Source of the DNA: Elusimicrobiota bacterium
Lineage (GTDB): Bacteria; Elusimicrobiota; Elusimicrobia; UBA1565; UBA9628
Assembly (NCBI GenBank): GCA_028868375.1
Contig: JAGWUP010000008.1
Location: forward strand, 4,751 to 68,750
Reading direction: 5' to 3'
Length of the DNA: 64,000 nucleotides
A program made the position numbers and the translations under genes. This document shows, one piece after another, positions 3,345 through 32,117 of the stretch (position 1 is the first letter of the stretch; each line of letters starts with the position of its first letter). Under the pieces are notes generated by a model. It searched no databases. It saw only the letters and a program-made list of their open reading frames with translations, and had not been told where the DNA came from.

Positions 3345-3370
3345 CCGGACCCCGCGCCGGTCTAGGCCTA

Positions 3371-3380: not shown

Positions 3381-3408
3381 GTCCTATTCCCTCTAGGGCC
3401 TACAGCCC

Positions 3409-14130: not shown

Positions 14131-14349
14131 GGCGCTGCCACGCAATAACATGAACATTCTGGAGGCCCGAGCTTGAGACGATTTCAAGGCGCGAAGAGAG
14201 GGCATGGCGGTAGTCATGCGGGCGATGAGCAACGCGGAAATCGGCCAACCTCGGGCTTCCCCACAGAGCCGGGCCGTTTTTGGGCTGCGCCTTCGTCGCC
14301 CCGCTCCAAAATCGCGCACGGCAGAGCGACCATCTTATTGCGTGGCAGC
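14131..14349. repeat. ~219-bp element bounded by a perfect 18-bp inverted repeat (GGCGCTGCCACGCAATAA ... TTATTGCGTGGCAGCGCC); MITE-like or structured-RNA element
   Basis: Arms at 14131-14148 and 14332-14349 are exact reverse complements. The interior is lower in GC. The right arm ends 5 nt before the transposase-like ATG. A related element is at 58934-59153. Confidence 0.5.
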
Positions 14350-14354
14350 GCCTA

Positions 14355-15257
14355 ATGGGCCGCCCCCAGCGCTTGCAGCTTCCGGGAGCTTGCTATTACG
14401 TGCTGCTCGAGGGAAACAACAGGCAGGATCTCTTCCTGTCGAGCCAGGACCGCCGCCAGTTCTTGGCCCTGCTGCGCTCCTGCAAGGAGCGCCACGAGCT
14501 GAAGGTCTACGCCTATTGCCTGCTGCCGCAGAAGGTCCACTTGCTCGTCGAGACGGACCGGCCCAACCTCGCCGCCGCCATGCAGAACCTGGGCAGCGTC
14601 TATACCAAGCGCTTCAACGCGGCCCACGATGTCTCCGGGCACCTTTTCGCGGGCCGCTACAAGGCCTGGCTGCTGGACAAGGAGCGCTTCCTGGCCGAGG
14701 CCACGCGGGCCATCCACCTGCAGCCCTCGCGCTCCGGCCTCAGGGACAAGCCTTGGCGCTACCCCTGGTCCAGCTGCTCCGCCTACGTGGAGTCCGAAGC
14801 GGGGGAACCCCTGATCGATTCCCAGCCCGTCCTGGCCCTGTTCGCCTCCGGGCGCCTGAAGCAGTCGGTGCGCTACATGCAGTATCTCAAGGACAGGCTG
14901 AAGTCCTCTTCCGCCGTCTTGCTGCCGGTGGCCCGCGGCCAGGTCATCGGCGGAGAGGAGTTTCTGGCGCGCATGCGAGCCAGGGCCGGGCGAGTCGAGC
15001 CGGCCCGGCCATCCCCGGAGGCGGAGCGCCAGGTCCTGGCGGAGGTCGCCAAGCGCCACGGCCTGGAGCCCGAGGAGCTGACGGGGCCCGGCCGGCGCCG
15101 CAGGGTGGCGGCCGCCAGGCGAGAGGCGGCCTACCGTCTGTCCAAGGAATTGCGCCTGGGCGTGGCCGAATTGGGGCGCCTGTTCCACCGCACTCCCAGC
15201 GCGCTCTGCCAGGCCCTGCGGACGGCTGAAATATCAACTAAAAAACTTAACTCCTGA
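14355..15257 (+). CDS. IS200/IS605-type Y1 (HuH) transposase-like protein fused to a DnaA-C-terminal-like HTH domain; HuH motif degenerate (K-V-H)
   Basis: N-terminal YYVLLEGNNRQDLF, then VHLLVETD, then a Tyr-region YTKRFN, match the Y1_Tnp fold. The C-terminal VAAARREAAYRLSKELRLGVAELGRLFHRTPSALCQALR resembles the DnaA C-terminal DNA-binding domain. The first His of HuH is replaced by Lys (14532-14540). Confidence 0.6.
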   Translation: MGRPQRLQLPGACYYVLLEGNNRQDLFLSSQDRRQFLALLRSCKERHELKVYAYCLLPQKVHLLVETDRPNLAAAMQNLGSVYTKRFNAAHDVSGHLFAGRYKAWLLDKERFLAEATRAIHLQPSRSGLRDKPWRYPWSSCSAYVESEAGEPLIDSQPVLALFASGRLKQSVRYMQYLKDRLKSSSAVLLPVARGQVIGGEEFLARMRARAGRVEPARPSPEAERQVLAEVAKRHGLEPEELTGPGRRRRVAAARREAAYRLSKELRLGVAELGRLFHRTPSALCQALRTAEISTKKLNS

Positions 15258-15358: not shown

Positions 15359-18300
15359 ATGAAGCGCCTGCTGCGCCAGGCCGTGGCCTGCCTGACCGTC
15401 GCCAGCCTGCTGATCACGGCTCCCGGCCTGGGCCTCTACAGCGCTCTAGCCGCCCAAATGGGGGAGGCGGCCGGCGATATCCCCGAGGGCCTGCCGCCGC
15501 GATTGCCGGGCTCGCCGATCGGCCCGGCGGGGGGCGTCGGCATTTCGGCGCAAGCCGCGGCGAATTGGCGGCGGCGTTTGGATGCGGCACGAGCCCTTGG
15601 AGGAGCCGGCGCCGTTTCCCAACCGGCCCCGCCCCAATCGGCCCAATCGGCACCTGCTCAAGCCTGGCGATCGCTACGAGCGTCGGTCGCCGCGGGCTTG
15701 GTCCCGCCGGGCCAGGGCGGGCGGCAGGCGGCTGCGTCTCCGGCGGCTGCGGCGCAGAGCGGCGCAAGCCCCGAGGCCGCGTCGGGATTGGCGGCCAGGC
15801 TGTTCGACCACTTGAAAAATCTGGGCGGCGGACTGCGCCGCTTGGTGTTCGATTCCGAGGAGGAAGAGCCGGCGGAGGAAGTGCCAGCGGCGGAAGTGCC
15901 AGCGGCGGAAGTGCCCGCTGCGGAGGGGCGGCGGTCGCCCGCTTTAGCGCCCGCCCTGGCGCCGGCATCCGAGCCGGATCCAGCGCAGCCGGAGCCGGCG
16001 CAGCCGCCGGCCGTTGCGAAGCCGGTCGGCGCCAGGCATTGGCTGGGAGCCGCGGGGATGACGGCCCTGTCCGGGGCGATCACCTGGAAATTCGGCGCGC
16101 CGAAGCTGGCGGGCTGGGCCGCCGCCTTGATCCACGCGCCGGCCGCCGCCCCGGCGATCGCGGTGGCGCTGACGGCGCTGCTGACTTACAGCACCGCCAA
16201 GCAGCAGTTCGGCGCGCTCTTGGAGCGCCGCCGGGCCCATCGGCTGGCCGAGATCCGCGAGCGGGAGGGCGAGCTGGCCGCGGTCGATTGGGAGCTGGAG
16301 CAGGCGCCCCGTCCCGCTCCCAACACGGCGCCGCACGAGATCGTCGGCTTGGCCTTGATCGTCGCGGCGGCGGCGGCGGGCCACGCGCTCTGGAGCGGCC
16401 CGGGAGCGGTCGGGGGCTTTCTGCTGGGGGCGTGGTTCTCGGATCGTTGGCTTAGCTTGCGACGGGATCGTTTCAAGGAGGACCGGCAGAAGCGCGACGA
16501 GCTCTTGCGCCGGCGCAAGGCCTTGGGCGGCTCCGAGGCGCAAGAGGCCTCGCCGGACGGCCCCGTCGCGGACGCGCTCGAGCCGCCCCTGGGCGGCTCG
16601 CCGCCCAGGGGCCCTCCCGCCGGGCTGTCGCCTCCGGGAACGGAGCCCTCAGCGGCTTCGCAAGGTCCTCGCGTCTTCGAGGACTTTTTCGGTTTTAGGT
16701 GGGTGCGCGGCCGGCTCCACGAGCCGGCCGCCGAGCCCTCTTCGGGACGGCTAGAAACGCTGACGGCCGGAGCGTTGATCCTGGGCTCGGCCTTCGCCGG
16801 CTTCGCCGCCTTCGGCCTGCTTGGGGCGGCGGGGGGATTGGTCGCGGGCTACGCCCTGGCCTTCCATCGGCAGGCCCGGCTGGCGCGCGGCAGCGCCCGC
16901 GAGGTCCTGCCGCTGTCGGCCACGACGGAGCAGGTCATTCGGGCGCTGGCTCGGGACGGGGGCTGGACGCGCCAGCGCTTGCTGGAATTGATGGCGCCCT
17001 TCGGCTTGGGCGAATCCAGCCCGCTCGACGCTTGGCTGGCGGTCCATGATTGGCTGCGCGTCCACGGCGACCGCGAGCAGTTCAAGCGCTTCGACCATGA
17101 GAAGTCCGACCATTCCTGGCGCGAGCTGGCCAATGTCCGCTACAGCGAGGGCCGGCGCGGCGCGCTCGAACGCCTGGCCGAGGTCCAGAAGCATTCCGCC
17201 GGGGCCTTCGTCCGCTTCCCGTACCATCTCTTCGACCTGTTCGTGCTGGGCTATTTCCGGCAGAACATGGCCTACGAGCTGTTCCATTCCGGGGAGGATT
17301 TCCTGGGCGCCCTCCAGCCGGGCCTGCGCGAGAAATACCTGCTCCATGCCGCAAGCCAGGCGGTGGCCGCGCGCGGCTTCAAGCGCTCGCTGCGCGCCCA
17401 GCCGATCTACCGCGCCTTGGACCGCTACCTGTGGACGCCGTGGCTGGGACCCCTGGGGCAGTTCTTGTCGCGCCGCCTGACCCTGGCCGTCGCCTCGGCG
17501 GTGGCGATGGGGGTGCTGGGCGGCTTGGCCCCGGTGCTGACCGTCTTCGGCCTGCCGCTGTTGTCTCTGTCCTTGACCACGATCCCGCTGCTGGGCCCCG
17601 CCCTCATCGCGATCGTCAACGCCCTCCCGGTGCTGGTGGGCTGGCTTCCGTTCTGCGGCCATGCCCTAGCCCCGGTGGCCGCGGCCGCCGCGCAGAAGCT
17701 CTTGGCCGACCTGGTCGTAGGCCCGATGCTCAACACCCTGATCCTGTCGAGCTTCCTGACCTTCCCGCACGCGGTGCGCCAGAGGCTGGCCGAGCTGGAC
17801 GCCGCCGACCCCGCCCGGCGCCGCGGCCTGCGCTCCCAGGAGCTCTGCGCGGCGGCGCTGGCCGTGGCCTCGTCCTCGGCGTACTGGCGCGCCAACTTGA
17901 AGTCGTTCCTGGCGATGATGACGGTCGGCGCCGAGATCGAGGGCATCATGACCTACGCGGACGTCGCCGATCAGGCGGCCAGCGCCGTCAGCGGCGCGCA
18001 CGTGACGCTGTTCCACGCCCTGGGCTCGGCGGTGGAGCGGCCCCGCGGAAAGAGCCTGATCCCCTTCGGCGGGGCGATCACCTGGGGCAACGTCCTGCTT
18101 TACAAGGCGCAGAATTGGCTGGGCTTCAACCTCTCCGACGCGGTGGCCCATGGCGTCTCCGTTTTCATCGGAGACCGGCTGCCGGGGGTGGTCCATGCCC
18201 AGACCCTGCTGGCCGTGGCCGAGGGGCGCTACCGCGGCGCCCGCGGCCCCAAGCCCGCGCCCTTCGACAAGACCCTCTATCGCAAGTCTCCGGGCCAGGT

Positions 18301-21300
18301 CTGGCGGCGCTTGAAGGACCTGGCCAGCCGCGGCGGCGACCTAGAGTCCCGGATCGCCCAGGCCAAGGCGCGGGCCGAGGCGGCGAGGCGGGAACTGGCG
18401 AGCGAGCGCAAGCGCTTCGCGGCGCTGGAGGCTTCCCTGCCGCCCTCGGTGACCCCCGCCCAGCGCGCCGAACTGGAGCGCTTGAACGCGCGCTACGCCT
18501 CCGCCCGGGACGAGGACTACGCCCGCGGCAAGCTGGCGGAGGACGGCGACCTGGCCGCCGCCCCGGACGCGGCGCGGCTGGCGCGCTTGCGGGCGCTCAA
18601 GCAGAGTTACGCGGACGATCTGGTGGCGCGCGACGGGCGGCGCCCGGCCGTCTCCGACGCGCTGGCCGCGCGCCGGGCCCAGCTGCTGGCGCTGGAGCGC
18701 AGCCTCTCCTCCGTCGTGGAGAAGGGGACGGTGGCGCTGCCGAATGGGACGGCGGCCCGCCTGCCGGACGCCACCGTGACGCAGATCGCCCAACTGGTCA
18801 AGACGATCGAGGACCTGCGCTCCCAGGCCAAAGGGGAAATGGCCAACCGCGACGCCGAAAGCCGGCTCTTGGGAGTGCTCGCGCAGGCGCGGCACAACGC
18901 CCTGCGCGAGCGCCGCAACGGGCGGGGGATGAGCGATTTTCACCGCAACCTGGCGCGCCTGGACACCGTGATGAGCCTGGCCCTCTCCCTCAACGAGATC
19001 GCGGCGGCCGAGCAGGCCATCCACCAGATGATGGCCCTGCTGGACGCCAAGATCGCCAAGATCAACGCCGCCGCGCAGCAGAACCAGCAGAACCTGGCCC
19101 AGGCCCAGCAGAATCAGCAGCAGACTCAAAAGTGGAAAGACGAGGCCAACCAGGTCATCAGCGCCGACCAGAGCACCCAGAAGACGATCGTCGACTACGA
19201 GAACCGCACGGCCCTGGCCGCGGAGCGCGTCGGCTCCTTCCAGCACGACCTCTCCGCGCTGATCGGCGTGATCAACGCCCGCGACGGCGGCCAGAGCCGC
19301 GACGCGCTGACGGAGTACGCGCGGCGCCTGGCCCTGCTGCCCCAGGTGGCGGACTGGCGGACCAACGGCAATCCCAACGATTCCTCCGCATTCTCCCTGA
19401 AGACCTTCCAGGACGACCTCTCCCAGGTCGACGGCTATATCCAAAAGGTCCAGGACGGGATCGGGCAGCTGCGCCAGACTCCCCTGGAGGCGGCCGGAGT
19501 GGCCATCATCCTGGTGCCTGGGCCCGACGTGACGATCCACAATCCGACCAAGGAGCAGACGCTGCAGATACTGGCCGACCGCAAGACCTATTGGCAGAGG
19601 CAGTCCCAGCAGTACCGAGACGACCTGGCGCGGATCAATCGGATGATGGATCCGGGCAACACGAACACGACGACCGACGAGTTCGGCGATTCCGCTCCGG
19701 AGTCGCTGCCGCGCTACCTCAGCCAAGAACAGGGCATCGAGCAGACGGCGCGGGCCAATGTCCAGCAGTACGCGGCCCAGATCGACGCGGCCGCCGACCA
19801 GATCAACTCCGTGGCCGGCTCCAACCTGCCCCATCTCTCCGGCCTGCCGCTCGACCAGCTTGAGAGCGTCATCACGAATTACGGCAACCTGGCGCGCGCG
19901 GTCAAGCTTCCGGACAGCGGCGGCAACGACGCGGCCTACCTGGCCTCGATGAACATGCTCTCCTTGGCCAAGCTCATCCCCTACGCGGCCGACAACGTGG
20001 TCCAGTGGGCCAAGGCCGACGCGACGATCACCTCGATCAACTCGGCGATGGCCACGACCCTGCCGCAGGCCAAGACGCGCCTGACGGCCATCGTCCAGGT
20101 GTTCGACGACGTCCTGGCCGACGACGACGCCGACGTGGCCTACGTCACCCATGGCGGCGACCCGCAGGCCCTGCTTAACCGCAAGATCGATCTGCTGCAG
20201 AACAAGGTGCTGCCCGCGCTGCAGGGAGCCGACGATCTGCTGCGCAACGTGCTGATTCCCTACCAGCGGCAGAGCATCGCCCAGGTCCAGGTCGACGCCT
20301 CGGCGCCGCTCTACCAGCTTCTGACCAGCCAGCAGACGCTGGCCCAGAGCGTCTCGCAGCTCTACAACTCCGACGTGGCCTGGGCCCTGGCCAGCTTCGG
20401 CGGCAGCAAGAGCGACCCCGCCGGCAGCCGCGCCAGCATCGCGGCCTGGAAGAAGACGATCGAGCAGAACTTGAACGGCTACGACGACGCCCAGGGCCAC
20501 CATGAGGGCGTCAACGAGTACATCGTCGAGGTCCAGCATCGCAAGGATCCCAACTACGCGGGGCCGGAGACGACGGACTATTTAAAGGACCCCAACTATC
20601 CGGACGGCGGCCCCTTCAGCCTGCCGCGCAAGATCGCCCTATACTCCGCCGAGCGCGCCCAGCGCGTCGCCCAGCTCAACGCCCAGGACGCCCAGATCAA
20701 CGACATCCTAAGCCATATCGAGACCGTCTCCAAGGGGCGCTACAACCTGCAATCCTTCCGCCTGCCCACCGACCTGACCGGCGACGCCGCCGGCGCCAGC
20801 CGGGCCCAGGCGCTGTTCGACTCCAACCTGATCCAGAACCTCGGCGGAGAGCTCCAGCAGATCGCGGCCGACAACCAGTCCTCCGGCGCCGGAATCTCGG
20901 TGGCGGACCAAGGCTCGGCCGGGCCTCCGACCGGCACGCAGCCGCCGATCACGGCCTCCGACGCCCAGACCCTTTCCCTGCTGGCCTTGGACGCGGCCAA
21001 GCGCATCGTCCCGTCTTCCTTGCAGCAGCCGCAGACCGCGCCGGCCTCCTACGCCTTGGCCCGCTTGCTCTACTCCAACGGCACCCTCTCGGCCGCCCAG
21101 GACGCCCTGACCAACCAGATCCCCGTGGCCGAGACGGTCCTGGCCCATGCCCAGGCGGTGCTGACGGCGGCGGACGACACCAGCAAGGACGAGGCCTACG
21201 TCGACTCCAATGGGACCAGCGAAAGCGCCGACTCCGTCTACGCGCGCAAGGTGGCGCTTTTTAGCAGCCTCAACGCCTTTTTGCAGGAGGGGGCCAACTT

Positions 21301-24300
21301 CTTCAACCTGAAGGGGCAGTGGGACATGGCCTCGCTCAACACCGTCGACCAGGTCTCCCAATATTACGGCGGACTGGGCACGATCTACGGCGGCGCCTCC
21401 AGCACCACCAGCGGGGAGCTGCAGGCGGCCACCCAGATGAAGGCGGCGCTGCAGACGACGCTGGACGGCCTGGAGCAGAGCAGGACCAAGGTCAAAGGCT
21501 GGATGTCCCAGCTCGACGATCCGCACGACAGCGCCCTGGCGCGCGTCAGCGAATCGGTGGCCACCCTCCAGGACCAGACCCGCAAGGTCCTGGAGGCCAA
21601 CGTCCAATGGCAAGGCGTCCGAGACCAATTGCGGCGCAGCGACGATATCGTCGCGGCCAAGTTGGGCGAGCTCGACGAGGCCCAGCAGCGGCTGGTCCGC
21701 CTGCTCGACCGCCCCGACGTCAGCGGCGGCGGCTTGCCGCCGGACTTGATCAACCGCATCGAGGCCCTCCGTCTGGCCGGCGGAAGCTGGGCCTGGGGCG
21801 GCTCCGACGGCAGTCCCGAGGCGATCGCCGTCAAGAAATCGGACTTCGGCGGCTTCGTCGAATCTCTCCTTGACGCCCTGGGCGCGCGCGGCTCCTCGGA
21901 GAACCTGCCGCTGTTGCGCCAGGACCTGCTCTCCAACCCCGGCGGGCTCTCGGCCCTGCTGCCGGACGCCAAGATGCTCGAGTTCGGCGGCGACGACGGC
22001 TTCTACTTGATCTATCAGTCCCGCTTCTCGGTGCCGAACGGCCTTGAGACCGGCACCGACGTCACCCTGGGCAACGCGGCGCGCCTGGGCGGCAACAACA
22101 TCTCGGTGGGGGGCTACCAGCTCGCCAGCCAGCCCAGCGACGCCAGCGCCCCCTACGGCGACAAGGGGGCGTGGGTGCAGGTGGAAAGCCTGCGGGGCAA
22201 GAACTGGGTCAACTACCTCAACGTCGACCTGCACCGCTTCATCTTCGACATCCCTCCGGACGCCAAGCCGATCTCGCAATTGCGCGAGAGCCGCCTCCTG
22301 GTCTTCGACGACTTCGCCATGCTGCTCTTCGGCGACCGCCTCTACGTCGGCCTGGCCGGCTTCGCCGACCGGGCCGTCGACCAGCCCGGCCAGCACCCGT
22401 CCTATTACGGCGGCAACCTCAAGACCTCGATCCGCCTCAACGGGGTCATGCGCCTCAACGCCGAGCAGAGGGAGCTTTTCGCCAACGATCCGCGCAAGTT
22501 CCTGGAGACGGTCAACCTGGACTTCACCGGCTTCGATCCGGACTTAAACCAGACCTTCGCCATCCAGGCCCACGGCGACAACAAGCATTACTCGCGCACC
22601 CAGGTCGGCCCCAGCTTCGACGTGGGCAAGCTCTTGGGCAGCAAGGACGCCTTCACACTCGACCTCTACTGGGCCAAGACGACGGGCAGCGACGACATCC
22701 ACCAGGAATCGCTGGGCGTCTCCATCCTGAAGGGCTTCACCCTGGCCGACGCCGACGGCAAGCCCTGGGCCGTCATCGACAACCAGGCCAACGCCGAGCT
22801 GGGCCAGCAATACCCGGCCTACCGGGACCGCCTGTCGGTGACCCTGCCGCGCCAGGGCATCGTCGTCAGCGGCCAGGGCCAGATCCTGGGCCCCACCAGC
22901 GCCTATTACGGTGAGATCTCGAAGAGCTTCGGCGACCACTCGACGGTGAGGGTGGGCTACGGCTCGCGCTACGTCGGGATCAAGGACCGCCTGTCGCTGG
23001 AGATGAACACCTCCTTCACCCTGCGGCAGCTCTATGAAGCGGTGCTCGCCCACGGCCGCTCGCAGCTCAAGGGAGGCCGGCAATTAAGCCGCTTCAACAC
23101 GGATATTAAGAACTTCTTCGACTCCGACCGGGACGGCGGCGGCTCGGGAACGCGCGTGGAGGCCTTGCGCCGCGTCTTCGATCAGGACGTGGGCCGCAAG
23201 CTGCTGACCCAGGACATCGGAACCTTGCGCCGGGACATCGACCAGTTGCGCGGCGCGGGCGCCTTCCTTGATAACACCCGCGTGCAGGGGATGATCGGCT
23301 TCATCTCCAATCCCGTCTCCAGCGACCAGGCCGACGTCACGGTCGGCGGAGGCCCGGTGGCCGCCACCCAGACGGAGCTGACGCTGACCCGCTCGCAGAA
23401 GGCGCTGATCCAAGCCAAGACCCAGGCCCTGTTCTTGGACGGCCTGCGCCTGCAGCAGCGGCTGCTGGAGCTGTCGCGGCGCTGGCAGGAGGACGTGGCC
23501 CAGATCGCGCGCGCGCAGTGGGACTTGAAGCTGGCTTCCTTCATGCGCCAGAACGCCGGCACCGAGGCCCTGCGCCGCCAGGCGGGAGTCCTGGCCGCGG
23601 ACGCCTCGGACCGGCTGCACCAGGCCCTGCTCGACTATAACGCCTTGTCCGGCCGCTCGCCGGACGCCCCGGTCCCGTTCAAGGATCTCAGTGCCTCCGA
23701 CCTGCGCGAGCTGACGGCCGCCATCCGCGGCACGCTGTCCGGCGGCGACCGCCTCAAGGCCATCCTCCACGAGCTCGATCCGGCTCAAATGAAGGAGCGG
23801 CTGGGTCCGGAGGCCTTCAACCTCCTCGACTGGCTGCCGTTTCTCGATCGCATGACGCTGAGCATCGGCGCCCAGCTTCAGGACTCCCTGGCCAACCAGG
23901 CGATGACCGTCGGGGTCAGCTTGCGCATACCGGTCTACGATCCCTCCTCCGGGCACGCGGACAAGGCCTACCGCCTGGAAAGCCGGGCGACGATCGCCCA
24001 GATGGCCGAGCTGCAGGCGGAGCGGCGGCTTGAGGCCGATCGCCAGGACGCGCAGGCCCGGCTGAGCGCCGGACAGGCCAAGGCCGCCCAGGCCGGCCTG
24101 CCTCGCGCCGCGCGCGCCTTGTCCTTGGCCATTCGAGCCTACCGCAACGGCTTGATCGGCGAGGCCGAGCTGCAGCAGGCCTTCGATACCTGGCGCTGGT
24201 ACGCGCGCGAGGCCTTGGACGGCGAGATCGAGTCCTCCCTGTCCGCCGCCTGGGCCGCCTCCGGCCGATACCTGGCCGGCTCGACGGACGACGGGAATGG

Positions 24301-27300
24301 GGACGGGAGCGGGAACGAGAACGGCAGCCTCGCCTTGGGCTCGCTGGACGAGGCGTTCTCGCAAGCCGAGTCGCGCTCGGGCAGCCTGGCCGAGGTGGCG
24401 CTGCGCGAGCAGGCCGCGGCCGAGATGGCGCGCGACAACGCCCATCGCATCCAGAAGGTCCTCCTCGATTTGAACATCGGCACCGGCTTGACGGCCAGCG
24501 GCGACGGCTGGCTGCCGGCCGTCGGCCTGACCGGCTACCCGGTGATGCCGATCGTCCGCTTCGAGTTCAAGCCGGAGGAATTGCGGGAGCTGCAGGCCGA
24601 GGAGGGGCGCGGCCAGACGGAGTACTACCGGCAGCTCAAGGCCGAGCTGGAGGGGGAGCTGGCCTTGGAGCTCTATCAGAGCGTCGTCGCCTATCAAAGC
24701 GCCTCCGCCGCCGTCTCGCGCTACGACGACTCCCTGCTGCCGGGGCTGCGGGAGCGGGCCGAGGTCGAGGGGCAAGGCAGCGGCGGGGCCGCCGTCAAGG
24801 CCCAGCGGCGCCTGGACGCGGCCTTGGAGAAGCGCGCGCAGGCGGCCTTGGCGCGGCGGCAGGCGCTGGCGACGCTGAACTTCCTCTTGGGGCGCCGGGG
24901 CGACGCTCCGTTGCAGGTGGGAATCGACGCGGACCAGGCCCTGGCCTGGCTGCGCGCCGCCCTCTCGCGGGAGAACCCGGTGGCGGCGCGGCAGCGGCTG
25001 CTTAAGGCGCGCGTTCAGACGGCCCAGGCCGTCGAGACGGTGGTCGACAAGGACCTCAGGGCCCAGCAGCTTGCCCTGGAGCCGGTCTCGCTGGTGGCGC
25101 GCTCGCTGGGGCGGCTGATCGATGTCTTGGGCGGCGGCAAGCCCGGACGTCCCCAACTGCTGGCGGAGGCCCGCGCGCAGACCTTGAGGGAGCAGCGCGC
25201 GCTCGACGCCTATCCAGGCCAGCGGCGAGCCGCGATCGCGCAGGCGAAAGCCCAGTTGAACTTGGTCCGCTCCCGCTTGGAAAGCCTCTCCAACGGCGGC
25301 GACGCCGCCCAGCGCGAGCTGTTGCTCGGCCGCGAGCGGATACTCTTGGGCGCCCTGTGCGCCTTGGGCGCCGACGGGCAGGACGCCGCCCCGCAGAGCT
25401 ACTCCGAGCTCCCGCATTCCTTCGACGAGTTGGGCGAGCGCCTGGCGCAAGCGCGACAGGACATGTCGGCGCGACAGCCGGGCTCGCCGGTCGAGCTGCT
25501 GGCGCCGGCAACGCAGCGGCAGCGGCCCGCCGGCTTCGCCCGCTATTACTACGCCCAGCAGACGCTGGGAAAGGTTGCCATCGACAAGAGCTACGTCGAG
25601 GGCTGGCTTGAGACGCGGCTGCGCGACTACGAGACCGATCCGAAGGTCCTGCTGCGCCTGGCGCAGTTGAGCGGCCGCAAGGCAGACGAGCTTCATCGCG
25701 TCGAGGTCGCGGGCTCGCGCGCCCAGGGCGAGATGCTGGCGGCCGATTTCGAGGCGGAGGCGCGGCTGCTGCGCTGGGCCGAGACCGCGCGCGGGCAGGA
25801 AGGGGCGGATTTGCGGGCCTCCCTGCTCAAGGAGCTGGAGGCACGGAGAGCCGAGATCGTCGCCCTGTTGAACCTTCCCCCGGACACCGGTCTCGACTCT
25901 CTGCTGGCCCTGGTGCCCGCCCAATCGCGGGGGGACGGCGATCCCTCCGCGCTTGCGAGCGGCTTCTCCGGGCAGATCCGCCGGCTGGGGCTGGGCGAGC
26001 TGGAGAGATCATTGTTCGCCGACGGGCAATTGGCGGGCTTGGGAACGGATGCGGACCTCCTCTCCCGCTTGCGCGCCGGCCTGCTGGCCGAGCGGATGAG
26101 CTACGACGGCCTGACCCCCGTCCTGGCCTTCGGCCTCTTCCGCGGCACGCCGACGGGCGGGGCCGTCCTCGAGGTCCCCGACCCGCGCCAGATCGAGCAT
26201 GGGTTGGACAACATGCTCTCCGAGGCGCTGCGCAAGGACTTGGAATCCTCCGGCCGGCTGCGGGAGCTGTCCCTGGGCCTGCGCGCGCTGATGGCCAAGG
26301 TCCAGGACGAGGAGGTGGAGGTCGAGCGCAGCGCCCGCCTGGTCCAGGCGGCGGAGGCGGACTATCGCGCCCAAATGGGCCTGGTGGGCGAGGGCGGCGA
26401 CCTCGCCGAGGCGGAGGCGGCGCGCTCCCGGCTGCTCAAGGCCTGGCTGGGATTCTCGCGGCGGCTCTCCGGGGCCAGGGCCGATTTCGTCGAGCTCGTC
26501 ACCGAGCTGGAGGCCCTCAATCCCGGCCGGCGGGCCGGCTTAAGGCCGCTGGTCCATCCCCTGCGCGCGCAGCCGCCGACCTTGAGGTCCGACCCCCGCC
26601 GGCGGCTCTTGTCCTATTGGACCGACCGGATGCTGGACGCGGATTTCCGCGCCGACCTGTCCCGCCGGCTGGACTTGATCGCCGCTCGCGCCTCCCCCGC
26701 CCAAGGGAAGGCCTTGTCGCAGTTGCGCCGGCGCCTGGAGGAGGACGCCGGGCTGTACTCGACCGCGGATCGGGACGCCGCGGCCGTGCTGGCCAAGGAC
26801 TTCTCGGACGCGGAGCGCCTCGACCTGCTCTCGCGCAACGATCGGGAAGGCAAGCGGGAGGCGCTGAGCTTCGATCTGGGCCGGCTCTTGGAGGCTTGCG
26901 GCGGGCTGTCGCAGCGCGACGATCCGTTGGTGGCCTTCCTGGTCCGGGACATCGACGCCCAGGCCCGGCGCGCCGCCGCAGCGCGCGACGACTTCGCCGC
27001 GCTAGACGGCGCGCTCAGGCAGGCCGCCTGGAGCGCGGACGACCCGGCGCGGGGGATCTTCCAGCGCTTGGAGGCCGCGCGCCAAACGATGGAGACGGCG
27101 CGGCAGGCCCTCTGGGCGGACGACGACGGTCTGGAAGAGAACGCGACGCGGGTGCTGCTCAAGGACAGCCGGCTGGACGACTTCTTGAAGGCGCAGCAGC
27201 GCTACGACGCCGAGGTCGTGGGGACCTTCCAATCCGAGGCCGTGCGCCGCGATCGCTCCCTGGCCTGGCGTCTCGACGCCTTCTTCGACCTCGACGCCGC

Positions 27301-30178
27301 CCTCGACCGGCAGATCGACGCCGCGCGCGGGGGCCGCGGGATGCTGGCCATGGACGCCTTGATCGCCCTGGAGCGCTCGCGCTTGCTGGCCGCGCGCTGG
27401 GAGGGCCGTCCCCCCGGCGAGCTGGACGCGCTGGCCGCCAACTTGCAGGCCCTGCGCGACAGGCGGCAGGCCTGGCGCTCCGGCGCCTCCGACGTGGAGC
27501 CGCTCTACGCGGTGACCAGGATCGAGCGCGACGGCCGCCGCCTCTGGAGCGTGGAGGGCTGGATGACGCGCCGAGAGTTCGAGGCCGAGCGCGCCGCCGG
27601 GCGAGTCAAGTCCGTCGACGGGCGCATGATCTGGAGCGGGGGGGCAGCCCCGCGCGAGTTGATCGGCGGCATCGACGCGGCGCGCGCTGACTTGGACTCG
27701 GCCCGGTCGGCCGCGCGGGACAACGGAGCGGTCCTTTCCCGGCAGGGCCTGCTGGAGCGCTACGATTACGTGCCGGATCGCCCCTTGCGCGGGGACCGGG
27801 CCCCCGCCCGCGAGGGGCTCTCCGTCGAGGATCTTTTCGGCGCCGCGGGCCTGGGCCGCCAAGGCCGGCTGTTATTCTTCAAGGCGCCCAAGCCCGGCGA
27901 GCCCGCCGGCTCCGAGCACCAGGCCTTGGACCCGATCGCGGCGCTGAGCCTGAGCCCGGACGATTACGTCGTCTACGCCTACGACGGCGGCAAGCCCTTG
28001 GACAAAGGCGCCTTCCCGAGCCTGGAAAGCCTCAAGGACTCCGAGCGCCGCAGCGATTTTGCGCGGCTGACTCTTTCCCCCTCGGGGGCGCGGGATCTGG
28101 GCGCGCGCCTGGAGCGGCAGCGCCAGGCGGAGCTCGAAGCCGGCTGGGTCGACGTCAAGCTGGACGGCTACGGCTTCGCGCGCGACGCCAAGGGCGACGT
28201 CGTCCAGATTTACCTGACCCGAGACGACTTCCGCGCCCAGCGAAAGGCCTTCGCCAACGCCGCGCGCGACTTGGAGGCGCTGCGGGCCGCAAGCCGCCGC
28301 GCCCAAGAGCGGGAGCAGCGCGCCAAGGGCGAGCTGGAGGCCCGGCGCGCGGCGCTCGAGCATGCCCGACCGGCCTACGAGGCCGCCCGGGCGCGGCGCT
28401 CAAGCGACAAGGCGGGCTTTGATTCCGCCCAGGCCGCTTTCGACGCCCTGTCGAAGGCCTCCAGCCGGGCGCAGGCGGACTATGAGGCCGCCAACGCCGC
28501 GGCGCAGAACGCCAGGCGGGCGGTGACGGAGGAGAAGAGCACATTGGCGCGGTCGAAGGCCTGGAGCCTCTATCGCAGCCGCGATCTATCCCTGTCGCTC
28601 GACGCCGACGGGACGATCGTCGCCGCGGCGGCGCAGCCCGTCTACGGCGCGCAGACCCTCTCGCAGCCGGTGGCCTCGGGAGGGCCGGTCGCCCGGGTGC
28701 TCTCCGGGGAGCTGCTGGCGGCGGCCCTGGACTCCCAAGGCCGCCTGGTCGGCTATTACCAGGACCCCGAGGCGCTGGCGGCCGACGCCCGGCGCTGGAA
28801 GCTGGTGACCGTGTCCCTGGGCGCGGGCTCCGAGCTGCCGGCGGCGGCGAGGACGGTCGATCCCCGCGCGCGCCTGGACCATTACGAGCTGCCGCTGCCC
28901 GGAGGGGGCTCGGCGCCCATCGCCCTCAACCGCCGCTACCTGATCGCCCAGGTCCAAGACGCCCGCGCCAAGCTCCATGCCGCGGACCATTACGCCGTCC
29001 TGCCTTGGCATTGGGGCGACTTGCTGCTCGAGCTTCCGCGCGGGGTGGCCGGCGCCCCGCTGGAATTATTGGGCGGCCGAGATCCCCGCCAGCAGCATTA
29101 CCTGGGCCGCGCGGCCATGTACCGGACGGAGGGCGGCTCCACGGAGCGTCAGGGTTTCTTCCGCCGGGCGGCGGGCTTGATCGACATACTGGACTTCCTG
29201 CCCGATCCGGTCGAGCGCTTCTTCGACCCCAGCCAGTTCCCGGATCATGTCGCCGTCGATTCCCCGCTGCTGCCCGGCCAGAGCGTGTTCGACAAGGGCA
29301 TGCGGACCTTGGACGGCAGAAAGGACATCCACTTCGGCGCCACGGCGCTGCGGCGCGAGCTTTCCTACTCCCTGGAGGATCTCGCCGCCGAACAACGGCG
29401 CGCCCTGGAGCATTTCCACGGCGGCGAGGAGACGCTGCTCGTCTCAAGCTGGAGGGGGCGCTCCGGCCTCTACCAGGACTCCACGCGCTCCGGCGCCGCG
29501 GGGCCGCAAGCCCTGCGCTCCGCCCTGAATGAGCCCTCCTTCTCCGCCGAGCTGCCGGACAGCCTGGCCGTCGAGGGCTTGCGGCGCGTGGTGCGGCCGC
29601 GCCTGGGCGCCGACGAGCTGGCCCAGGAGGAGGCGGCGCTGAAGGGCTATCCCGAGGCCTTCTTGCGGCGGCTGGGCCTGAGGCGCTCAAGGCAAGCCGG
29701 GCTTGAACAGCGCTCGGCCCGGGCCCAAGCGACTCTTAAGCGCGCCCAGGCGGCGCGCCGCGGGGCTCATGCGCGCGCCGAGGCGCTGTGGTCGCGGCGC
29801 GAGGCGCTGGCCGAGCGCGTCTCCGCCTACGACGCCGCGCGGACCCGGTTGGAGCGCTCGCGCGCAAGGCAGGCGGAGCTGGCCCGCAGCCTGGCGTTCT
29901 GGCGGCACGAGCTGGCGCGGCTGAACGCGCGGGCCCAGGGCTTGAGGCCCGCGGGTCCCCGGCGCGATTTTCCGGCGAAGGCATCCCCTCTTGCCGCCCC
30001 GTCGGCAGCTCCCGCGGCCCCCGCCCGACTGCCCGCCCCCGCTCCCGCGACCCATGGGGAAAAACCGGCGCCAGCCTCGCGAAGCCTGCCTTGGGGCCTG
30101 GGCTTGGCCGGCGCCATCCTGACGGCCGCGCTGTTGTGGTGGAAGCGGCGCTGGGCCTTAAGGCCTAGTCATTCATAG
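15359..30178 (+). CDS. giant envelope protein (4939 aa): signal peptide, Pro/Ala-rich linker, polytopic membrane domain, coiled coils, beta-rich region, TolC/OEP-like module, long helical C-terminal part, C-terminal TM anchor
   Basis: Single 14.8-kb ORF. N-terminal MKRLLRQAVACLTVASLLITAPGLG. At least 10 hydrophobic helices in aa 220-900. A Q/N-rich coiled coil follows. The TolC-like segment (about 23350-24900) includes VSLRIPVYD, AIRAYRNGLIGEAELQQAFDTW and LATLNFLLG. The C-terminus is LPWGLGLAGAILTAALLWWKRRW. Confidence 0.7.
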   Translation: MKRLLRQAVACLTVASLLITAPGLGLYSALAAQMGEAAGDIPEGLPPRLPGSPIGPAGGVGISAQAAANWRRRLDAARALGGAGAVSQPAPPQSAQSAPAQAWRSLRASVAAGLVPPGQGGRQAAASPAAAAQSGASPEAASGLAARLFDHLKNLGGGLRRLVFDSEEEEPAEEVPAAEVPAAEVPAAEGRRSPALAPALAPASEPDPAQPEPAQPPAVAKPVGARHWLGAAGMTALSGAITWKFGAPKLAGWAAALIHAPAAAPAIAVALTALLTYSTAKQQFGALLERRRAHRLAEIREREGELAAVDWELEQAPRPAPNTAPHEIVGLALIVAAAAAGHALWSGPGAVGGFLLGAWFSDRWLSLRRDRFKEDRQKRDELLRRRKALGGSEAQEASPDGPVADALEPPLGGSPPRGPPAGLSPPGTEPSAASQGPRVFEDFFGFRWVRGRLHEPAAEPSSGRLETLTAGALILGSAFAGFAAFGLLGAAGGLVAGYALAFHRQARLARGSAREVLPLSATTEQVIRALARDGGWTRQRLLELMAPFGLGESSPLDAWLAVHDWLRVHGDREQFKRFDHEKSDHSWRELANVRYSEGRRGALERLAEVQKHSAGAFVRFPYHLFDLFVLGYFRQNMAYELFHSGEDFLGALQPGLREKYLLHAASQAVAARGFKRSLRAQPIYRALDRYLWTPWLGPLGQFLSRRLTLAVASAVAMGVLGGLAPVLTVFGLPLLSLSLTTIPLLGPALIAIVNALPVLVGWLPFCGHALAPVAAAAAQKLLADLVVGPMLNTLILSSFLTFPHAVRQRLAELDAADPARRRGLRSQELCAAALAVASSSAYWRANLKSFLAMMTVGAEIEGIMTYADVADQAASAVSGAHVTLFHALGSAVERPRGKSLIPFGGAITWGNVLLYKAQNWLGFNLSDAVAHGVSVFIGDRLPGVVHAQTLLAVAEGRYRGARGPKPAPFDKTLYRKSPGQVWRRLKDLASRGGDLESRIAQAKARAEAARRELASERKRFAALEASLPPSVTPAQRAELERLNARYASARDEDYARGKLAEDGDLAAAPDAARLARLRALKQSYADDLVARDGRRPAVSDALAARRAQLLALERSLSSVVEKGTVALPNGTAARLPDATVTQIAQLVKTIEDLRSQAKGEMANRDAESRLLGVLAQARHNALRERRNGRGMSDFHRNLARLDTVMSLALSLNEIAAAEQAIHQMMALLDAKIAKINAAAQQNQQNLAQAQQNQQQTQKWKDEANQVISADQSTQKTIVDYENRTALAAERVGSFQHDLSALIGVINARDGGQSRDALTEYARRLALLPQVADWRTNGNPNDSSAFSLKTFQDDLSQVDGYIQKVQDGIGQLRQTPLEAAGVAIILVPGPDVTIHNPTKEQTLQILADRKTYWQRQSQQYRDDLARINRMMDPGNTNTTTDEFGDSAPESLPRYLSQEQGIEQTARANVQQYAAQIDAAADQINSVAGSNLPHLSGLPLDQLESVITNYGNLARAVKLPDSGGNDAAYLASMNMLSLAKLIPYAADNVVQWAKADATITSINSAMATTLPQAKTRLTAIVQVFDDVLADDDADVAYVTHGGDPQALLNRKIDLLQNKVLPALQGADDLLRNVLIPYQRQSIAQVQVDASAPLYQLLTSQQTLAQSVSQLYNSDVAWALASFGGSKSDPAGSRASIAAWKKTIEQNLNGYDDAQGHHEGVNEYIVEVQHRKDPNYAGPETTDYLKDPNYPDGGPFSLPRKIALYSAERAQRVAQLNAQDAQINDILSHIETVSKGRYNLQSFRLPTDLTGDAAGASRAQALFDSNLIQNLGGELQQIAADNQSSGAGISVADQGSAGPPTGTQPPITASDAQTLSLLALDAAKRIVPSSLQQPQTAPASYALARLLYSNGTLSAAQDALTNQIPVAETVLAHAQAVLTAADDTSKDEAYVDSNGTSESADSVYARKVALFSSLNAFLQEGANFFNLKGQWDMASLNTVDQVSQYYGGLGTIYGGASSTTSGELQAATQMKAALQTTLDGLEQSRTKVKGWMSQLDDPHDSALARVSESVATLQDQTRKVLEANVQWQGVRDQLRRSDDIVAAKLGELDEAQQRLVRLLDRPDVSGGGLPPDLINRIEALRLAGGSWAWGGSDGSPEAIAVKKSDFGGFVESLLDALGARGSSENLPLLRQDLLSNPGGLSALLPDAKMLEFGGDDGFYLIYQSRFSVPNGLETGTDVTLGNAARLGGNNISVGGYQLASQPSDASAPYGDKGAWVQVESLRGKNWVNYLNVDLHRFIFDIPPDAKPISQLRESRLLVFDDFAMLLFGDRLYVGLAGFADRAVDQPGQHPSYYGGNLKTSIRLNGVMRLNAEQRELFANDPRKFLETVNLDFTGFDPDLNQTFAIQAHGDNKHYSRTQVGPSFDVGKLLGSKDAFTLDLYWAKTTGSDDIHQESLGVSILKGFTLADADGKPWAVIDNQANAELGQQYPAYRDRLSVTLPRQGIVVSGQGQILGPTSAYYGEISKSFGDHSTVRVGYGSRYVGIKDRLSLEMNTSFTLRQLYEAVLAHGRSQLKGGRQLSRFNTDIKNFFDSDRDGGGSGTRVEALRRVFDQDVGRKLLTQDIGTLRRDIDQLRGAGAFLDNTRVQGMIGFISNPVSSDQADVTVGGGPVAATQTELTLTRSQKALIQAKTQALFLDGLRLQQRLLELSRRWQEDVAQIARAQWDLKLASFMRQNAGTEALRRQAGVLAADASDRLHQALLDYNALSGRSPDAPVPFKDLSASDLRELTAAIRGTLSGGDRLKAILHELDPAQMKERLGPEAFNLLDWLPFLDRMTLSIGAQLQDSLANQAMTVGVSLRIPVYDPSSGHADKAYRLESRATIAQMAELQAERRLEADRQDAQARLSAGQAKAAQAGLPRAARALSLAIRAYRNGLIGEAELQQAFDTWRWYAREALDGEIESSLSAAWAASGRYLAGSTDDGNGDGSGNENGSLALGSLDEAFSQAESRSGSLAEVALREQAAAEMARDNAHRIQKVLLDLNIGTGLTASGDGWLPAVGLTGYPVMPIVRFEFKPEELRELQAEEGRGQTEYYRQLKAELEGELALELYQSVVAYQSASAAVSRYDDSLLPGLRERAEVEGQGSGGAAVKAQRRLDAALEKRAQAALARRQALATLNFLLGRRGDAPLQVGIDADQALAWLRAALSRENPVAARQRLLKARVQTAQAVETVVDKDLRAQQLALEPVSLVARSLGRLIDVLGGGKPGRPQLLAEARAQTLREQRALDAYPGQRRAAIAQAKAQLNLVRSRLESLSNGGDAAQRELLLGRERILLGALCALGADGQDAAPQSYSELPHSFDELGERLAQARQDMSARQPGSPVELLAPATQRQRPAGFARYYYAQQTLGKVAIDKSYVEGWLETRLRDYETDPKVLLRLAQLSGRKADELHRVEVAGSRAQGEMLAADFEAEARLLRWAETARGQEGADLRASLLKELEARRAEIVALLNLPPDTGLDSLLALVPAQSRGDGDPSALASGFSGQIRRLGLGELERSLFADGQLAGLGTDADLLSRLRAGLLAERMSYDGLTPVLAFGLFRGTPTGGAVLEVPDPRQIEHGLDNMLSEALRKDLESSGRLRELSLGLRALMAKVQDEEVEVERSARLVQAAEADYRAQMGLVGEGGDLAEAEAARSRLLKAWLGFSRRLSGARADFVELVTELEALNPGRRAGLRPLVHPLRAQPPTLRSDPRRRLLSYWTDRMLDADFRADLSRRLDLIAARASPAQGKALSQLRRRLEEDAGLYSTADRDAAAVLAKDFSDAERLDLLSRNDREGKREALSFDLGRLLEACGGLSQRDDPLVAFLVRDIDAQARRAAAARDDFAALDGALRQAAWSADDPARGIFQRLEAARQTMETARQALWADDDGLEENATRVLLKDSRLDDFLKAQQRYDAEVVGTFQSEAVRRDRSLAWRLDAFFDLDAALDRQIDAARGGRGMLAMDALIALERSRLLAARWEGRPPGELDALAANLQALRDRRQAWRSGASDVEPLYAVTRIERDGRRLWSVEGWMTRREFEAERAAGRVKSVDGRMIWSGGAAPRELIGGIDAARADLDSARSAARDNGAVLSRQGLLERYDYVPDRPLRGDRAPAREGLSVEDLFGAAGLGRQGRLLFFKAPKPGEPAGSEHQALDPIAALSLSPDDYVVYAYDGGKPLDKGAFPSLESLKDSERRSDFARLTLSPSGARDLGARLERQRQAELEAGWVDVKLDGYGFARDAKGDVVQIYLTRDDFRAQRKAFANAARDLEALRAASRRAQEREQRAKGELEARRAALEHARPAYEAARARRSSDKAGFDSAQAAFDALSKASSRAQADYEAANAAAQNARRAVTEEKSTLARSKAWSLYRSRDLSLSLDADGTIVAAAAQPVYGAQTLSQPVASGGPVARVLSGELLAAALDSQGRLVGYYQDPEALAADARRWKLVTVSLGAGSELPAAARTVDPRARLDHYELPLPGGGSAPIALNRRYLIAQVQDARAKLHAADHYAVLPWHWGDLLLELPRGVAGAPLELLGGRDPRQQHYLGRAAMYRTEGGSTERQGFFRRAAGLIDILDFLPDPVERFFDPSQFPDHVAVDSPLLPGQSVFDKGMRTLDGRKDIHFGATALRRELSYSLEDLAAEQRRALEHFHGGEETLLVSSWRGRSGLYQDSTRSGAAGPQALRSALNEPSFSAELPDSLAVEGLRRVVRPRLGADELAQEEAALKGYPEAFLRRLGLRRSRQAGLEQRSARAQATLKRAQAARRGAHARAEALWSRREALAERVSAYDAARTRLERSRARQAELARSLAFWRHELARLNARAQGLRPAGPRRDFPAKASPLAAPSAAPAAPARLPAPAPATHGEKPAPASRSLPWGLGLAGAILTAALLWWKRRWALRPSHS
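15872..15925 (+). repeat. in-frame 15-bp tandem repeat (~3.5 copies) encoding (A)EVPAA
   Basis: gcggaggaagtgcca / gcggcggaagtgcca / gcggcggaagtgccc / gctgcggagg, located inside the giant gene. Confidence 0.6.
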
Positions 30179-30182
30179 GACC

Positions 30183-31499
30183 ATGGACCTGTGGCAGCGC
30201 CCGCCGATCCTGTTAGACTATGGCATGGCCCCGTTCTTCTTGGCCGCCCTGCTGGCCGTCCAGGCCAGGTCCGCCCCGCTCGTCGAAGGGGCTGGCCCGC
30301 GGCTTTTGGGTGCGGCGCCGCTGGCCGGCCCTGCGAACGTCGGCGCGGCCCGGCCGGGGCTGGGATTGCCGCCGGGCATCGATTTTTCGGCGGCGCCGCA
30401 GTTGCCGACGCTTCCGGGCAGCGAGGGGATACCGGCCCTGCCGCCCAGCGCGATCGTCGGGGACGGGATCGGGGCCGTTCCCGAAGCGGCCGGGCTCGGC
30501 GCGGCGCCGGCGGCCGCGGGCATTGGGCTGCGCGCGCGGCTTGCGGCGCCGGGGGCGGCCGCGTCGGAGGGGCTGACCGCGACAGCGGCCGGGCGGGCTC
30601 TGGCGGCATCGGCGGCCGGCCGAGAGGCGGCGCGCGCTCAAGCGGCGGGCGCTCAAGCGGCGCCGGACGGCGCCGAGGAATCCGCGGTCGGCCGGCAGCG
30701 GCGGTTTTGGGACCGGCAGGGCCCGGAGGGGAGCGATCTAGCGGCGCCCGCAGTCGCCGCCGGCGCCGCCATCGGCGCTTCGTTCGGCGGAACCTTCAGC
30801 GCGGCTCGATTGGCGCGGCCATTGGCCGCCGGCCGCCGGGGCGATTTTTCGGCGCGCGGGCGCGGGCAGAGACTTTCCGGCTCGCCGGCGTTGACGCCGG
30901 CGCCGGCTTCTTCCGGAGAGCCCGCCCGCTCGATGTCGCCGCCGGTGCCGTTGCTTTCCTTGCGGGTGGCCGGGCTGGCTTTGATCGTCGCCGAGGCTTG
31001 CGCGCAGCCGGCCGTCGTCTCCGGCTCCGCGGCCGCCGCGCGCGCCGCGCTGGCGCTGGCTGGCCGCCAAGCAGACGAGCGGGCTTCCGAAGCGCTTGAA
31101 GGCCGCGCCGCGGGCTGGTGGACTACTCTTGCTTCGGCACAAGGCCAGTTCTTCCAGGAAGCGTCGCCGGCGCGCCCCGCTGTTTTTCTCGGGAGCTTTG
31201 GTCCCGGGCCGGCGGCAAAATTGGCCGGGATGCCGGCGCGGCTCCAGAATCGGCGCCAAGCCGCCTTCCTGGAACCGGGGGTCGTCGCGGCAAGCGCGTC
31301 GAGGGCCCCCGCGCTCTCGCTGGCGGCCAACCAGCGGACGGCAGGCGCGGCAGGCAGGCTGGCGCGCGGCGCAGGCGCGGCGAACGATTCGCCGTTCTCC
31401 CCGTCGCCGGACGGCATGCCGGGGGCGGGAACATTCCCGGCCATGGCGCTGCTAACGGCGGGAGCGGTCTTGGCGTTGTCTTACCGTCGCGGATTCTAA
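30183..31499 (+). CDS. Ala/Gly/Arg-rich low-complexity membrane protein with N-terminal and C-terminal TM segments, C-terminal TM followed by RRGF
   Basis: ATG is 5 nt after the giant-gene stop. N-terminal MAPFFLAALLAVQA. C-terminal AMALLTAGAVLALSYRRGF. Extreme low complexity, so the call is uncertain. Confidence 0.4.
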   Translation: MDLWQRPPILLDYGMAPFFLAALLAVQARSAPLVEGAGPRLLGAAPLAGPANVGAARPGLGLPPGIDFSAAPQLPTLPGSEGIPALPPSAIVGDGIGAVPEAAGLGAAPAAAGIGLRARLAAPGAAASEGLTATAAGRALAASAAGREAARAQAAGAQAAPDGAEESAVGRQRRFWDRQGPEGSDLAAPAVAAGAAIGASFGGTFSAARLARPLAAGRRGDFSARGRGQRLSGSPALTPAPASSGEPARSMSPPVPLLSLRVAGLALIVAEACAQPAVVSGSAAAARAALALAGRQADERASEALEGRAAGWWTTLASAQGQFFQEASPARPAVFLGSFGPGPAAKLAGMPARLQNRRQAAFLEPGVVAASASRAPALSLAANQRTAGAAGRLARGAGAANDSPFSPSPDGMPGAGTFPAMALLTAGAVLALSYRRGF

Positions 31500-31550: not shown

Positions 31551-32117
31551 TTGACAGCGCCTTACGTCCTCACCTTCTTTCTGATCAACGCGTCGATCTG
31601 GACGGCCATGCTGCTGCCGGGCAGCGCGGGCTCGCCGCAGGCCTTCCTCCAGAACGCCGTCGCGCCGATCCTCTGCATCGCGCCGATCCTCTGGGTCCAA
31701 TACCGCCTGCTCGCCCGGATATTCCCCAACGTGCTTTTGGAGATTCTGGTCCAGTACGCCTCCTTCGCGCTGTTCATGTTTCTCAGCGGCTTTCTGATGT
31801 CGATAGGCCAGCAGGTCGGCTCCAGTTCCGCCCGCAATCCCCTGGGCTGGCTCGACGGCGGCCTGCGCGTCGCCCTGCTGGGGCAGTTTATCGGGATCGT
31901 GCCCTTAGAATTCAGGGATACGCGCCGCCGAGAGGGGCGGACGGGCGCTCGGCGCAACCCCGAGAAACGCCTTCTGTTGGTCCGCCGGAGCCAGCAGGCC
32001 CAAGATCGTCGAGCCGTCCTCCTGGCGCTCCGGCTTGACCGGCGGGCGATAGGCGGTCCTGACGTCGGCGTCGGCCGTGGTGACGACGTAGCCCCAGGTG
32101 GCGGGGTTTCCGCTTAG
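31551..32117 (+). CDS. possible small membrane protein in a low-GC island; the last ~70 codons overlap the convergent gene and look non-coding
   Basis: The first ~125 aa are hydrophobic with non-local codon usage (TFFLINASIWTAMLL...). The R-rich tail overlaps 31905-32117 of the minus-strand gene. Confidence 0.25.
   Translation: MTAPYVLTFFLINASIWTAMLLPGSAGSPQAFLQNAVAPILCIAPILWVQYRLLARIFPNVLLEILVQYASFALFMFLSGFLMSIGQQVGSSSARNPLGWLDGGLRVALLGQFIGIVPLEFRDTRRREGRTGARRNPEKRLLLVRRSQQAQDRRAVLLALRLDRRAIGGPDVGVGRGDDVAPGGGVSA

Follow-up and report, generated by a model that had tools for sequence, protein, structure and literature searches.

Outer-membrane factor (OMF) channels, such as TolC, OprM/OprN, CusC/SilC, CmeC, MtrE and VceC, are stand-alone proteins of ~450 aa, and their genes are often unlinked from those of their partners. 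Much larger envelope proteins are also known: the TamB/YhdP/AsmA-like bridges with Omp85 partners are very large, anchored in the inner membrane, and span the periplasm to an outer-membrane barrel. The present study concerns a gene for a 4939-aa protein from an uncultivated Elusimicrobiota bacterium (assembly GCA_028868375.1, contig JAGWUP010000008.1, positions 4,751-68,750 of the forward strand). This 64,000-nt stretch is referred to below as the window; nucleotide positions are those of the window, and aa numbers are those of the window protein, referred to as the giant. In the favoured reading, to which a probability of about 0.5 is given, the giant is a trans-envelope strut or tether that would mechanically couple the outer to the inner membrane, and its hub, which includes a predicted TolC-type module, may also be a pore or duct.

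The giant differs from each of the described systems to which it can be likened. Whereas OMF channels stand alone, its module makes up ~10% of the 4,939 aa, has ~2,800 aa N-terminal and ~1,700 aa C-terminal to it, and follows a predicted porin-like barrel and a possible third half-repeat; in addition, family profiles retrieve no canonical outer membrane efflux protein (OEP). Unlike TamB, YhdP and AsmA, in which the groove folds are beta-rich and the barrel is a protein of its own, the giant would have helical arms and its barrel in cis, and the AsmA and TamB models of Pfam find no match in it. The tripartite pumps and type I secretion systems (AcrAB-TolC, HlyBD-TolC) resemble it in spanning the envelope, with a TolC-type duct at the outer end and the inner membrane at the other (PMC8277102), but they consist of three proteins, including a recognisable energised transporter and an adaptor, whereas the giant is one chain in which neither domain is detectable. 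Bucl8 of Burkholderia, an OMF with a collagen-like tail, also joins an OMF-type module to a large non-OMF extension; since a 2021 review calls it an 'unexpected unique architecture' (PMC8277102), OMF fusions appear to be rare. In Bucl8 the OMF forms the N-terminal bulk and the collagen-like tail is short and of low complexity, whereas in the giant the OMF-type module is internal and the extensions comprise thousands of conserved, non-repetitive residues with membrane anchors. The closest functional analogues are the tether-porins OmpM of diderm Firmicutes and SlpA of Deinococcus (PMC10628300, PMC9388160). These bind peptidoglycan via an SLH domain, are far smaller and carry no TolC module; the giant has putative transmembrane anchors and a TolC-type module, and Pfam detects no SLH domain in it. 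Judged from its model, the module is shaped like an OMF and would work like one, but it departs from that group in three respects. Stand-alone OMFs measure ~420-500 aa and have their own signal peptide or lipobox, and the module lies inside a chain of 4,939 aa, all relatives being 2.6-5.9k aa long or pieces of such giants; its homology is not recoverable by profiles; and, in the loci scanned, no adaptor, pump or ATPase genes are conserved beside the family.

An intact giant gene in an Elusimicrobiota family

The window has a GC content of ~70%, and the open reading frame of the giant shows coding-type codon bias, with a GC content at third codon positions of 0.91. An earlier annotation made from the letters alone, referred to here as the sequence-only reading, had treated the frame as a single uninterrupted gene, a claim that a frameshift would have undone. 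The gene is genuine and is kept intact in relatives: an identical product is called on three contigs (NCBI metagenome-assembled genome GCA_028865065.1; Logan assembly SRR32006840), and orthologous single open frames occur in 13 other assemblies. A frameshift, an assembly artefact and a pseudogene are ruled out for the window gene on these grounds. All strings quoted in the sequence-only reading were relocated where it had placed them. These include the EVPAA repeats (aa 174-188), PAQPE (aa 208-216), the Q/N-rich run (aa 1240-1255), the TolC-like strings VSLRIPVYD (aa 2853-2861, nt 23915), AIRAYRNGLIGEAELQQAFDTW (aa 2924-2945) and LATLNFLLG (aa 3170-3178, nt 24866), and KRRW (aa 4929-4932), which follows a hydrophobic stretch at aa 4909-4927. 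The features of the giant and its upstream partner are collected in Table 1.

Table 1. Coordinates of the giant gene, its segments and the linked upstream gene in the window
Feature	Nucleotides	Residues	Strand	Remarks
Giant gene, long-form member of an Elusimicrobiota-restricted family	15359..30178	4939 aa	+	ATG start, one stop
Signal-peptide-like N-terminus	15359..15457	aa 1-33	+	K/R, hydrophobic core, '...TAPGLGLYSALAAQ'; presumed cleavage
Ala/Pro-rich non-conserved region	15458..16858	aa 34-500	+	EVPAA/PAQPE linkers, 3-4 hydrophobic helices
Long-form conserved domain	16886..17470	aa 510-704	+	FKRFD and RFPYHLFDxFxFGYFRQ motifs; no known family
Conserved block of ~4 putative transmembrane helices	17471..17770	aa 705-804	+	uncharged loops, both flanks net positive
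Invariant motifs TVGAEIEGIMTYA, AVERP, IPFGGAITWGNVLLYK	17891..18106	aa 845-916	+	invariant alignment columns
N-terminal arm of conserved core	18776..22000	aa 1140-2214	+	coiled coil and Q/N-rich run (aa ~1240-1255) at start
Predicted ~20-strand outer-membrane beta-barrel	22001..23023	aa 2215-2555	+	
Possible third OEP-like half-repeat	23276..23650	aa 2640-2764	+	extra beta-hairpin with 51-aa and 29-aa helices, in model
Predicted TolC/OMF-type protomer	23747..25078	aa 2797-3240	+	two units: beta-hairpin, 66-residue helix, 34-39-residue helix
Pfam PF02321 (OEP) match	23894..24181	aa 2846-2941	+	profile positions 64-157 of 187
C-terminal arm of conserved core	25079..29668	aa 3241-4770	+	mostly helical, Arg-rich, no known domain
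Putative C-terminal anchor	30083..30175	aa 4909-4939	+	'LPWGLGLAGAILTAALLWW-KRRW'
Upstream partner gene	14280..15257	325 aa	+	Y1-transposase-like (PF01797) and DnaA_C helix-turn-helix (PF08299)

Homology searches were run with three segments of the giant, and they returned Elusimicrobiota proteins only, mostly partial and on short contigs. A scan of GTDB species representatives gave 45 loci with 59-77% GC, all but three of them titled as metagenome-assembled genomes of Elusimicrobia or Elusimicrobiota (the three are titled only 'bacterium'), and several of these genomes carry two copies. Reading the open frame through each GTDB match yields two architectures: a long class, with uninterrupted frames of 4634-5785 aa in the 13 other assemblies, and a short class of 3843-3934 aa in five assemblies. 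One long and one short paralogue are often found together in the same genome. A HMMER profile search of 1.84 billion cluster representatives found 103 proteins only, comprising giants of 3.4-5.9k aa, fragments of giants, and a distant subgroup at 21-25% identity. Window residues ~1140-4770 are colinear at 31-46% identity in all long and short members and form a conserved core of ~3,600 residues, while aa 510-930 and the C-terminal anchor are common to the long form only and aa 1-500 have no counterpart in any relative in the alignments. No internal sequence repeats were found in the giant. The possibility that the arms are degenerate OEP repeats was rejected because internal-repeat searches were negative (weak secondary domains only).

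The sole match outside Elusimicrobiota is a 6932-aa protein of Candidatus Omnitrophota (P0113, MBI4846161.1). Its similarity is confined to the first ~260 residues of the beta-barrel region (E 6e-10), which align with its aa 498-789, and it carries ~15 hydrophobic helices clustered near its C-terminus.

Split versions of the gene occur in the closed genome CP096137.1 (L001/L011) and on contig_222295_np1212 of ERZ26871208 (L004), where 5-9 'hypothetical' genes take its place. Their products are colinear with the window protein, and the frame shifts at every called gene boundary. Sequencing frameshifts are the most likely cause, since one of these contigs is labelled Nanopore-polished; pseudogenisation may be the alternative. 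Split annotation is a general hazard for giant high-GC genes. Naming within the family is also inconsistent: one 4644-aa member (P0020, JGI/IMG) is called 'exonuclease VII small subunit', a 3776-aa member (P0081, NCBI) 'TolC family protein', and the rest 'hypothetical protein'. Literature searches found no description of the giant family, which agrees with the claim of the sequence-only reading that the architecture had not been described.

Predicted barrel and TolC-type unit at the centre

The folds of the central 1,200 residues are predicted from an AlphaFold2 model of aa 2210-3409, computed with a multiple sequence alignment (MSA) of 25 sequences, which replaced a first model built on 11. 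Its mean predicted local distance difference test score (pLDDT) is 69.9 and its predicted template modelling (TM) score 0.57, with the long helices at 80-93. The modelled protomer shows the four beta-strands and long antiparallel helices of an OMF and can be superposed on solved OMFs. Foldseek aligned TolC, ST50, SilC/CusC and OprM to it over ~420-450 columns, with target-normalised TM-scores of 0.57-0.63. The hydrophobic/polar alternation of the hairpin strands is kept across the family. Both OEP repeats are visible in the model, together with a possible third, whose hairpin is of low confidence (pLDDT 42-62). This structural evidence makes a TolC-type fold in the module very likely, and the embedded TolC-type module proposed in the sequence-only reading holds as a predicted fold, with a Pfam OEP match inside it. 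N-terminal to this unit, the model contains a closed antiparallel barrel with lipid-facing alternation that superposes on solved outer-membrane barrels.

The Pfam match scores 24.7-29.6 bits, with a cutoff of 22, and its E-value ranges from 2.4e-5 for the whole protein to 7.3e-7 for the segment. A distant relative of 3,776 aa (P0081) has an OEP match of its own (E 1.4e-6), which maps by alignment to the family hidden Markov model to window aa 2998-3153, that is, to the other half of the module. In each of the two proteins Pfam recognises a single OEP repeat, the first in the window protein and the second in this relative. Searches of sub-segments of aa 2201-3800 with Pfam and of the whole protein with NCBIfam gave no domain besides the single OEP stretch, and phmmer found no match for aa 2560-3800 in the PDB. 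These comparisons do not establish that the module belongs to the OEP sequence family.

Proposed membrane attachment and rival readings

At the N-terminus, a hydrophobic segment (aa 8-32) ends in the AxA-like 'SALAAQ', and the motif 'PG..Y.ALA(A)(E/Q)' recurs there in long, short and distant relatives. The sequence-only reading had proposed at least ten hydrophobic helices forming an inner-membrane-type polytopic domain. Hydrophobic helices are present, but the Kyte-Doolittle (KD) count is 8-9 in aa 1-805; those of aa 249-281, 320-352 and 464-503 are insertions found only in this lineage. The polytopic domain was overstated; only the ~4-helix block is kept in relatives. This block is strongly hydrophobic (KD up to 2.2), and the membrane module finds no match in Pfam or the PDB. 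The invariant motifs that follow it are possibly further membrane-embedded segments. At the other end of the chain, the long form keeps a common design, with a Pro/Asn/Asp-rich run, PWxW, ~20 hydrophobic residues and RRR/KRR, and the positive-inside rule predicts a cytoplasmic C-terminal tail, with the arm before it on the outside. Taken as a whole, the earlier interpretation finds partial support. Its TolC-type module and its unusual architecture stand, and we infer the trans-envelope function, along with the membrane location, the oligomeric state and the topology of the arms.

Some long-form relatives (P0011, P0017; alignment A3 columns ~400-700) carry repeated units of ~90 aa between the signal peptide and the conserved domain, with the pattern 'RLAPDARLV.VAINL..P..HWIFVFRS..KR.ELTVWTKR'. 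These units may resemble periplasmic domains of the PepSY type.

In the strut or tether reading, the centre of the giant would lie in the outer membrane via tandem modules, the porin-like barrel followed by the TolC-type unit. By analogy with TolC, copies of the latter would assemble into an oligomer, with one beta-barrel formed jointly and a long alpha-helical tunnel that extends into the periplasm. One non-repetitive, mostly helical arm of 1,000-1,500 residues would extend from each side of this hub. Both ends of an even-stranded barrel lie on the periplasmic side, as do those of a TolC protomer, which would put both arms in the periplasm. In the long form, a lone helix with a KRR tail in the cytoplasm would hold the C-terminus in the inner membrane, and the conserved ~4-helix block would tie the N-terminal part to the same membrane. 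A strut or tether is favoured because the giant has no energising domain.

Several observations weigh against this proposal. Structural support is predicted throughout, and ~75% of the giant has no fold assignment. The Pfam OEP model reaches only 2 of 36 family members at E<=0.01, so that the match to PF02321 suggested as a check in the sequence-only reading is significant in the window protein but rare in the family. A profile of the 36 sequences retrieves no OMF chain from the PDB at E<=10, its comparison by hhalign with a three-sequence Escherichia coli reference profile (TolC, CusC and MdtP) gives a probability of 0.3%, and none of the canonical OEPs, which are very abundant, is among the 103 matches in the 1.84 billion representatives. 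With regard to topology, the positive-inside rule puts both flanks of the 4-helix block in the cytoplasm, in conflict with those relatives in which no helix separates the signal peptide from the block and which imply a periplasmic site. Short paralogues and the distant subgroup have a signal peptide only and lack both anchors; the core function therefore needs no inner-membrane attachment in cis. Finally, the Arg-poor, N/Q/T-rich aa 1250-2750 could be surface-exposed rather than periplasmic. A self-consistent positive-inside topology for the N-terminal module was sought and not obtained, given the conflict between the flank charges and the signal-peptide relatives.

The sequence comparisons also bear on the most sceptical explanation, in which the likeness to TolC is spurious. 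Long antiparallel helices and short hairpins of an Ala/Arg-rich helical giant would then attract a marginal OEP match and steer AlphaFold to a memorised fold, and the giant would be some other kind of helical protein, periplasmic or cytoplasmic. The score of 24.7 bits close to the cutoff, the small share of matching members and the uniformly negative profile-based tests fit this explanation. The first, shallow-MSA model was indeed poor (pLDDT 44.7), yet its top 31 Foldseek matches were all OMFs. The explanation is considered very improbable.

If the fold is accepted, the giant could instead be mainly a channel, in which the TolC-type module is an export or efflux duct and the arms and inner-membrane module replace the adaptor and the inner-membrane component, giving a conduit in one or two chains. 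Apart from the predicted fold, the anchoring of the long form at both ends speaks for such a conduit, as do charged and polar residues that are invariant within the membrane block or following it (TVGAEIEGIMTYA, AVERP, GGAITWG) and that resemble a functional site more than a passive anchor. However, no ABC, RND, MFS or HlyD/MFP domain is present in the giant and none is conserved nearby, the membrane module resembles nothing in the PDB or Pfam, and the short and distant forms possess the duct but no inner-membrane part, all of which makes a dedicated channel unlikely. A broader formulation, put forward only tentatively, is that the family represents an unrecognised class of trans-envelope machine. 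One giant chain, or a long chain together with a short one, would then combine a module in the inner membrane, bearing invariant charged residues, with two arms that cross the periplasm, a porin-like barrel of its own and a TolC-type duct. OMF channels are homotrimers with a 12-strand barrel and a 12-helix tunnel. Should the third half-repeat be genuine, each chain would carry three repeats, and two chains, not three, would build a six-repeat TolC-like barrel; a two-chain barrel would fit the frequent co-occurrence of long and short paralogues in the same genome.

The composition of the N-terminal arm raises a further alternative. Across aa 1250-2750 (window 18000-24000), Arg falls from 10-16% to 3-6% while N, Q, T, S and D rise, the arm itself being Arg-poor and N/Q/T/S/D-rich from aa ~1250, and the coding region shows a lower GC content (0.67-0.69) and negative GC skew. 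The giant might be a scaffold anchored in the outer membrane, or a surface protein, that has no real connection to the inner membrane, with its signal peptide cleaved, its C-terminal signal removed by a sortase-like enzyme, and the Arg-poor aa ~1250-2200 exported, as in autotransporters, through the barrel next to it. Besides the composition shift and the barrel directly after it, the three-part C-terminal layout of sortase/exosortase signals and the relatives with a signal peptide only are in keeping with this idea. The organism also uses type V secretion: a classical type Va autotransporter of 1970 aa is encoded in the window (45015-50927, +), with a beta-domain at E 2.7e-47 and eight PATR repeats, and the organism is therefore a diderm able to assemble barrels. 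However, no curated CTERM sorting model reaches its cutoff, with only sub-threshold generic matches for seven family C-termini and none for the whole protein. An autotransporter beta-domain has 12 strands. The internal, ~20-strand barrel of the giant is far larger and has no match to the Pfam Autotransporter model (PF03797). The conserved 4-helix block is likewise hard to explain without insertion into the inner membrane. A surface scaffold of this kind is regarded as improbable.

Genomic neighbourhood and significance

The only consistently linked gene encodes the IS200-like Y1 protein of 325 aa, found directly upstream of the long-form gene at 14 loci with 50-57% identity. It behaves as a domesticated, vertically inherited partner, perhaps a regulator, unlike a mobile element. 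A K+ channel gene lies further upstream in four loci, and nothing consistent was found among the neighbours of the short paralogue. The 438-aa frame that starts 4 nt past the stop of the giant (30183-31499, +) has a hydrophobic N-terminus (MDLWQRPPILLDYGMAPFFLAALLAV...) and no Pfam match, and is not kept beside the giant in other genomes.

Other genes of the window include one for a 2595-aa protein (3409-11196, +), in which Pfam finds only a short ResIII/DEAD helicase motif, at aa ~1796-1879, and whose homologues lie near the giant only in L021 and L023, and one for a 1055-aa protein without matches (177-3344, +). A 576-aa protein with an SLH-like Glucodextran_C module (31905-33635, -) adjoins a CBM48 protein and occurs near the giant in only two other loci. 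A cell-division and wall cluster (murB, ftsQ-like, ftsA) and a PilT/T2SSE-type ATPase are encoded at 57242-60424 (+) and 61551-62636 (+), respectively.

What is new in the family is its architecture, its size and its presumed attachment to both membranes; its components are familiar. TolC-type ducts and porin-type barrels belong to the best-studied parts of the Gram-negative envelope, where both are known as modest stand-alone proteins. Here both appear to be fused in tandem inside a conserved, non-repetitive chain of 3,600-5,800 residues, and one subfamily would also be anchored in the inner membrane. In practice, databases conceal the family, since long-read assemblies split the gene into 5-9 false genes and the labels are misleading. 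Its invisibility to profile-to-sequence searches bears on how far the TolC fold may diverge. The proposed arrangement also poses an assembly problem, as a chain anchored in the inner membrane at both ends must insert two barrel modules into the outer membrane. If the strut or tether reading is true, the giant would represent a new way to connect two membranes and would bear on the tethering and spacing of the outer membrane in diderms outside the model phyla.

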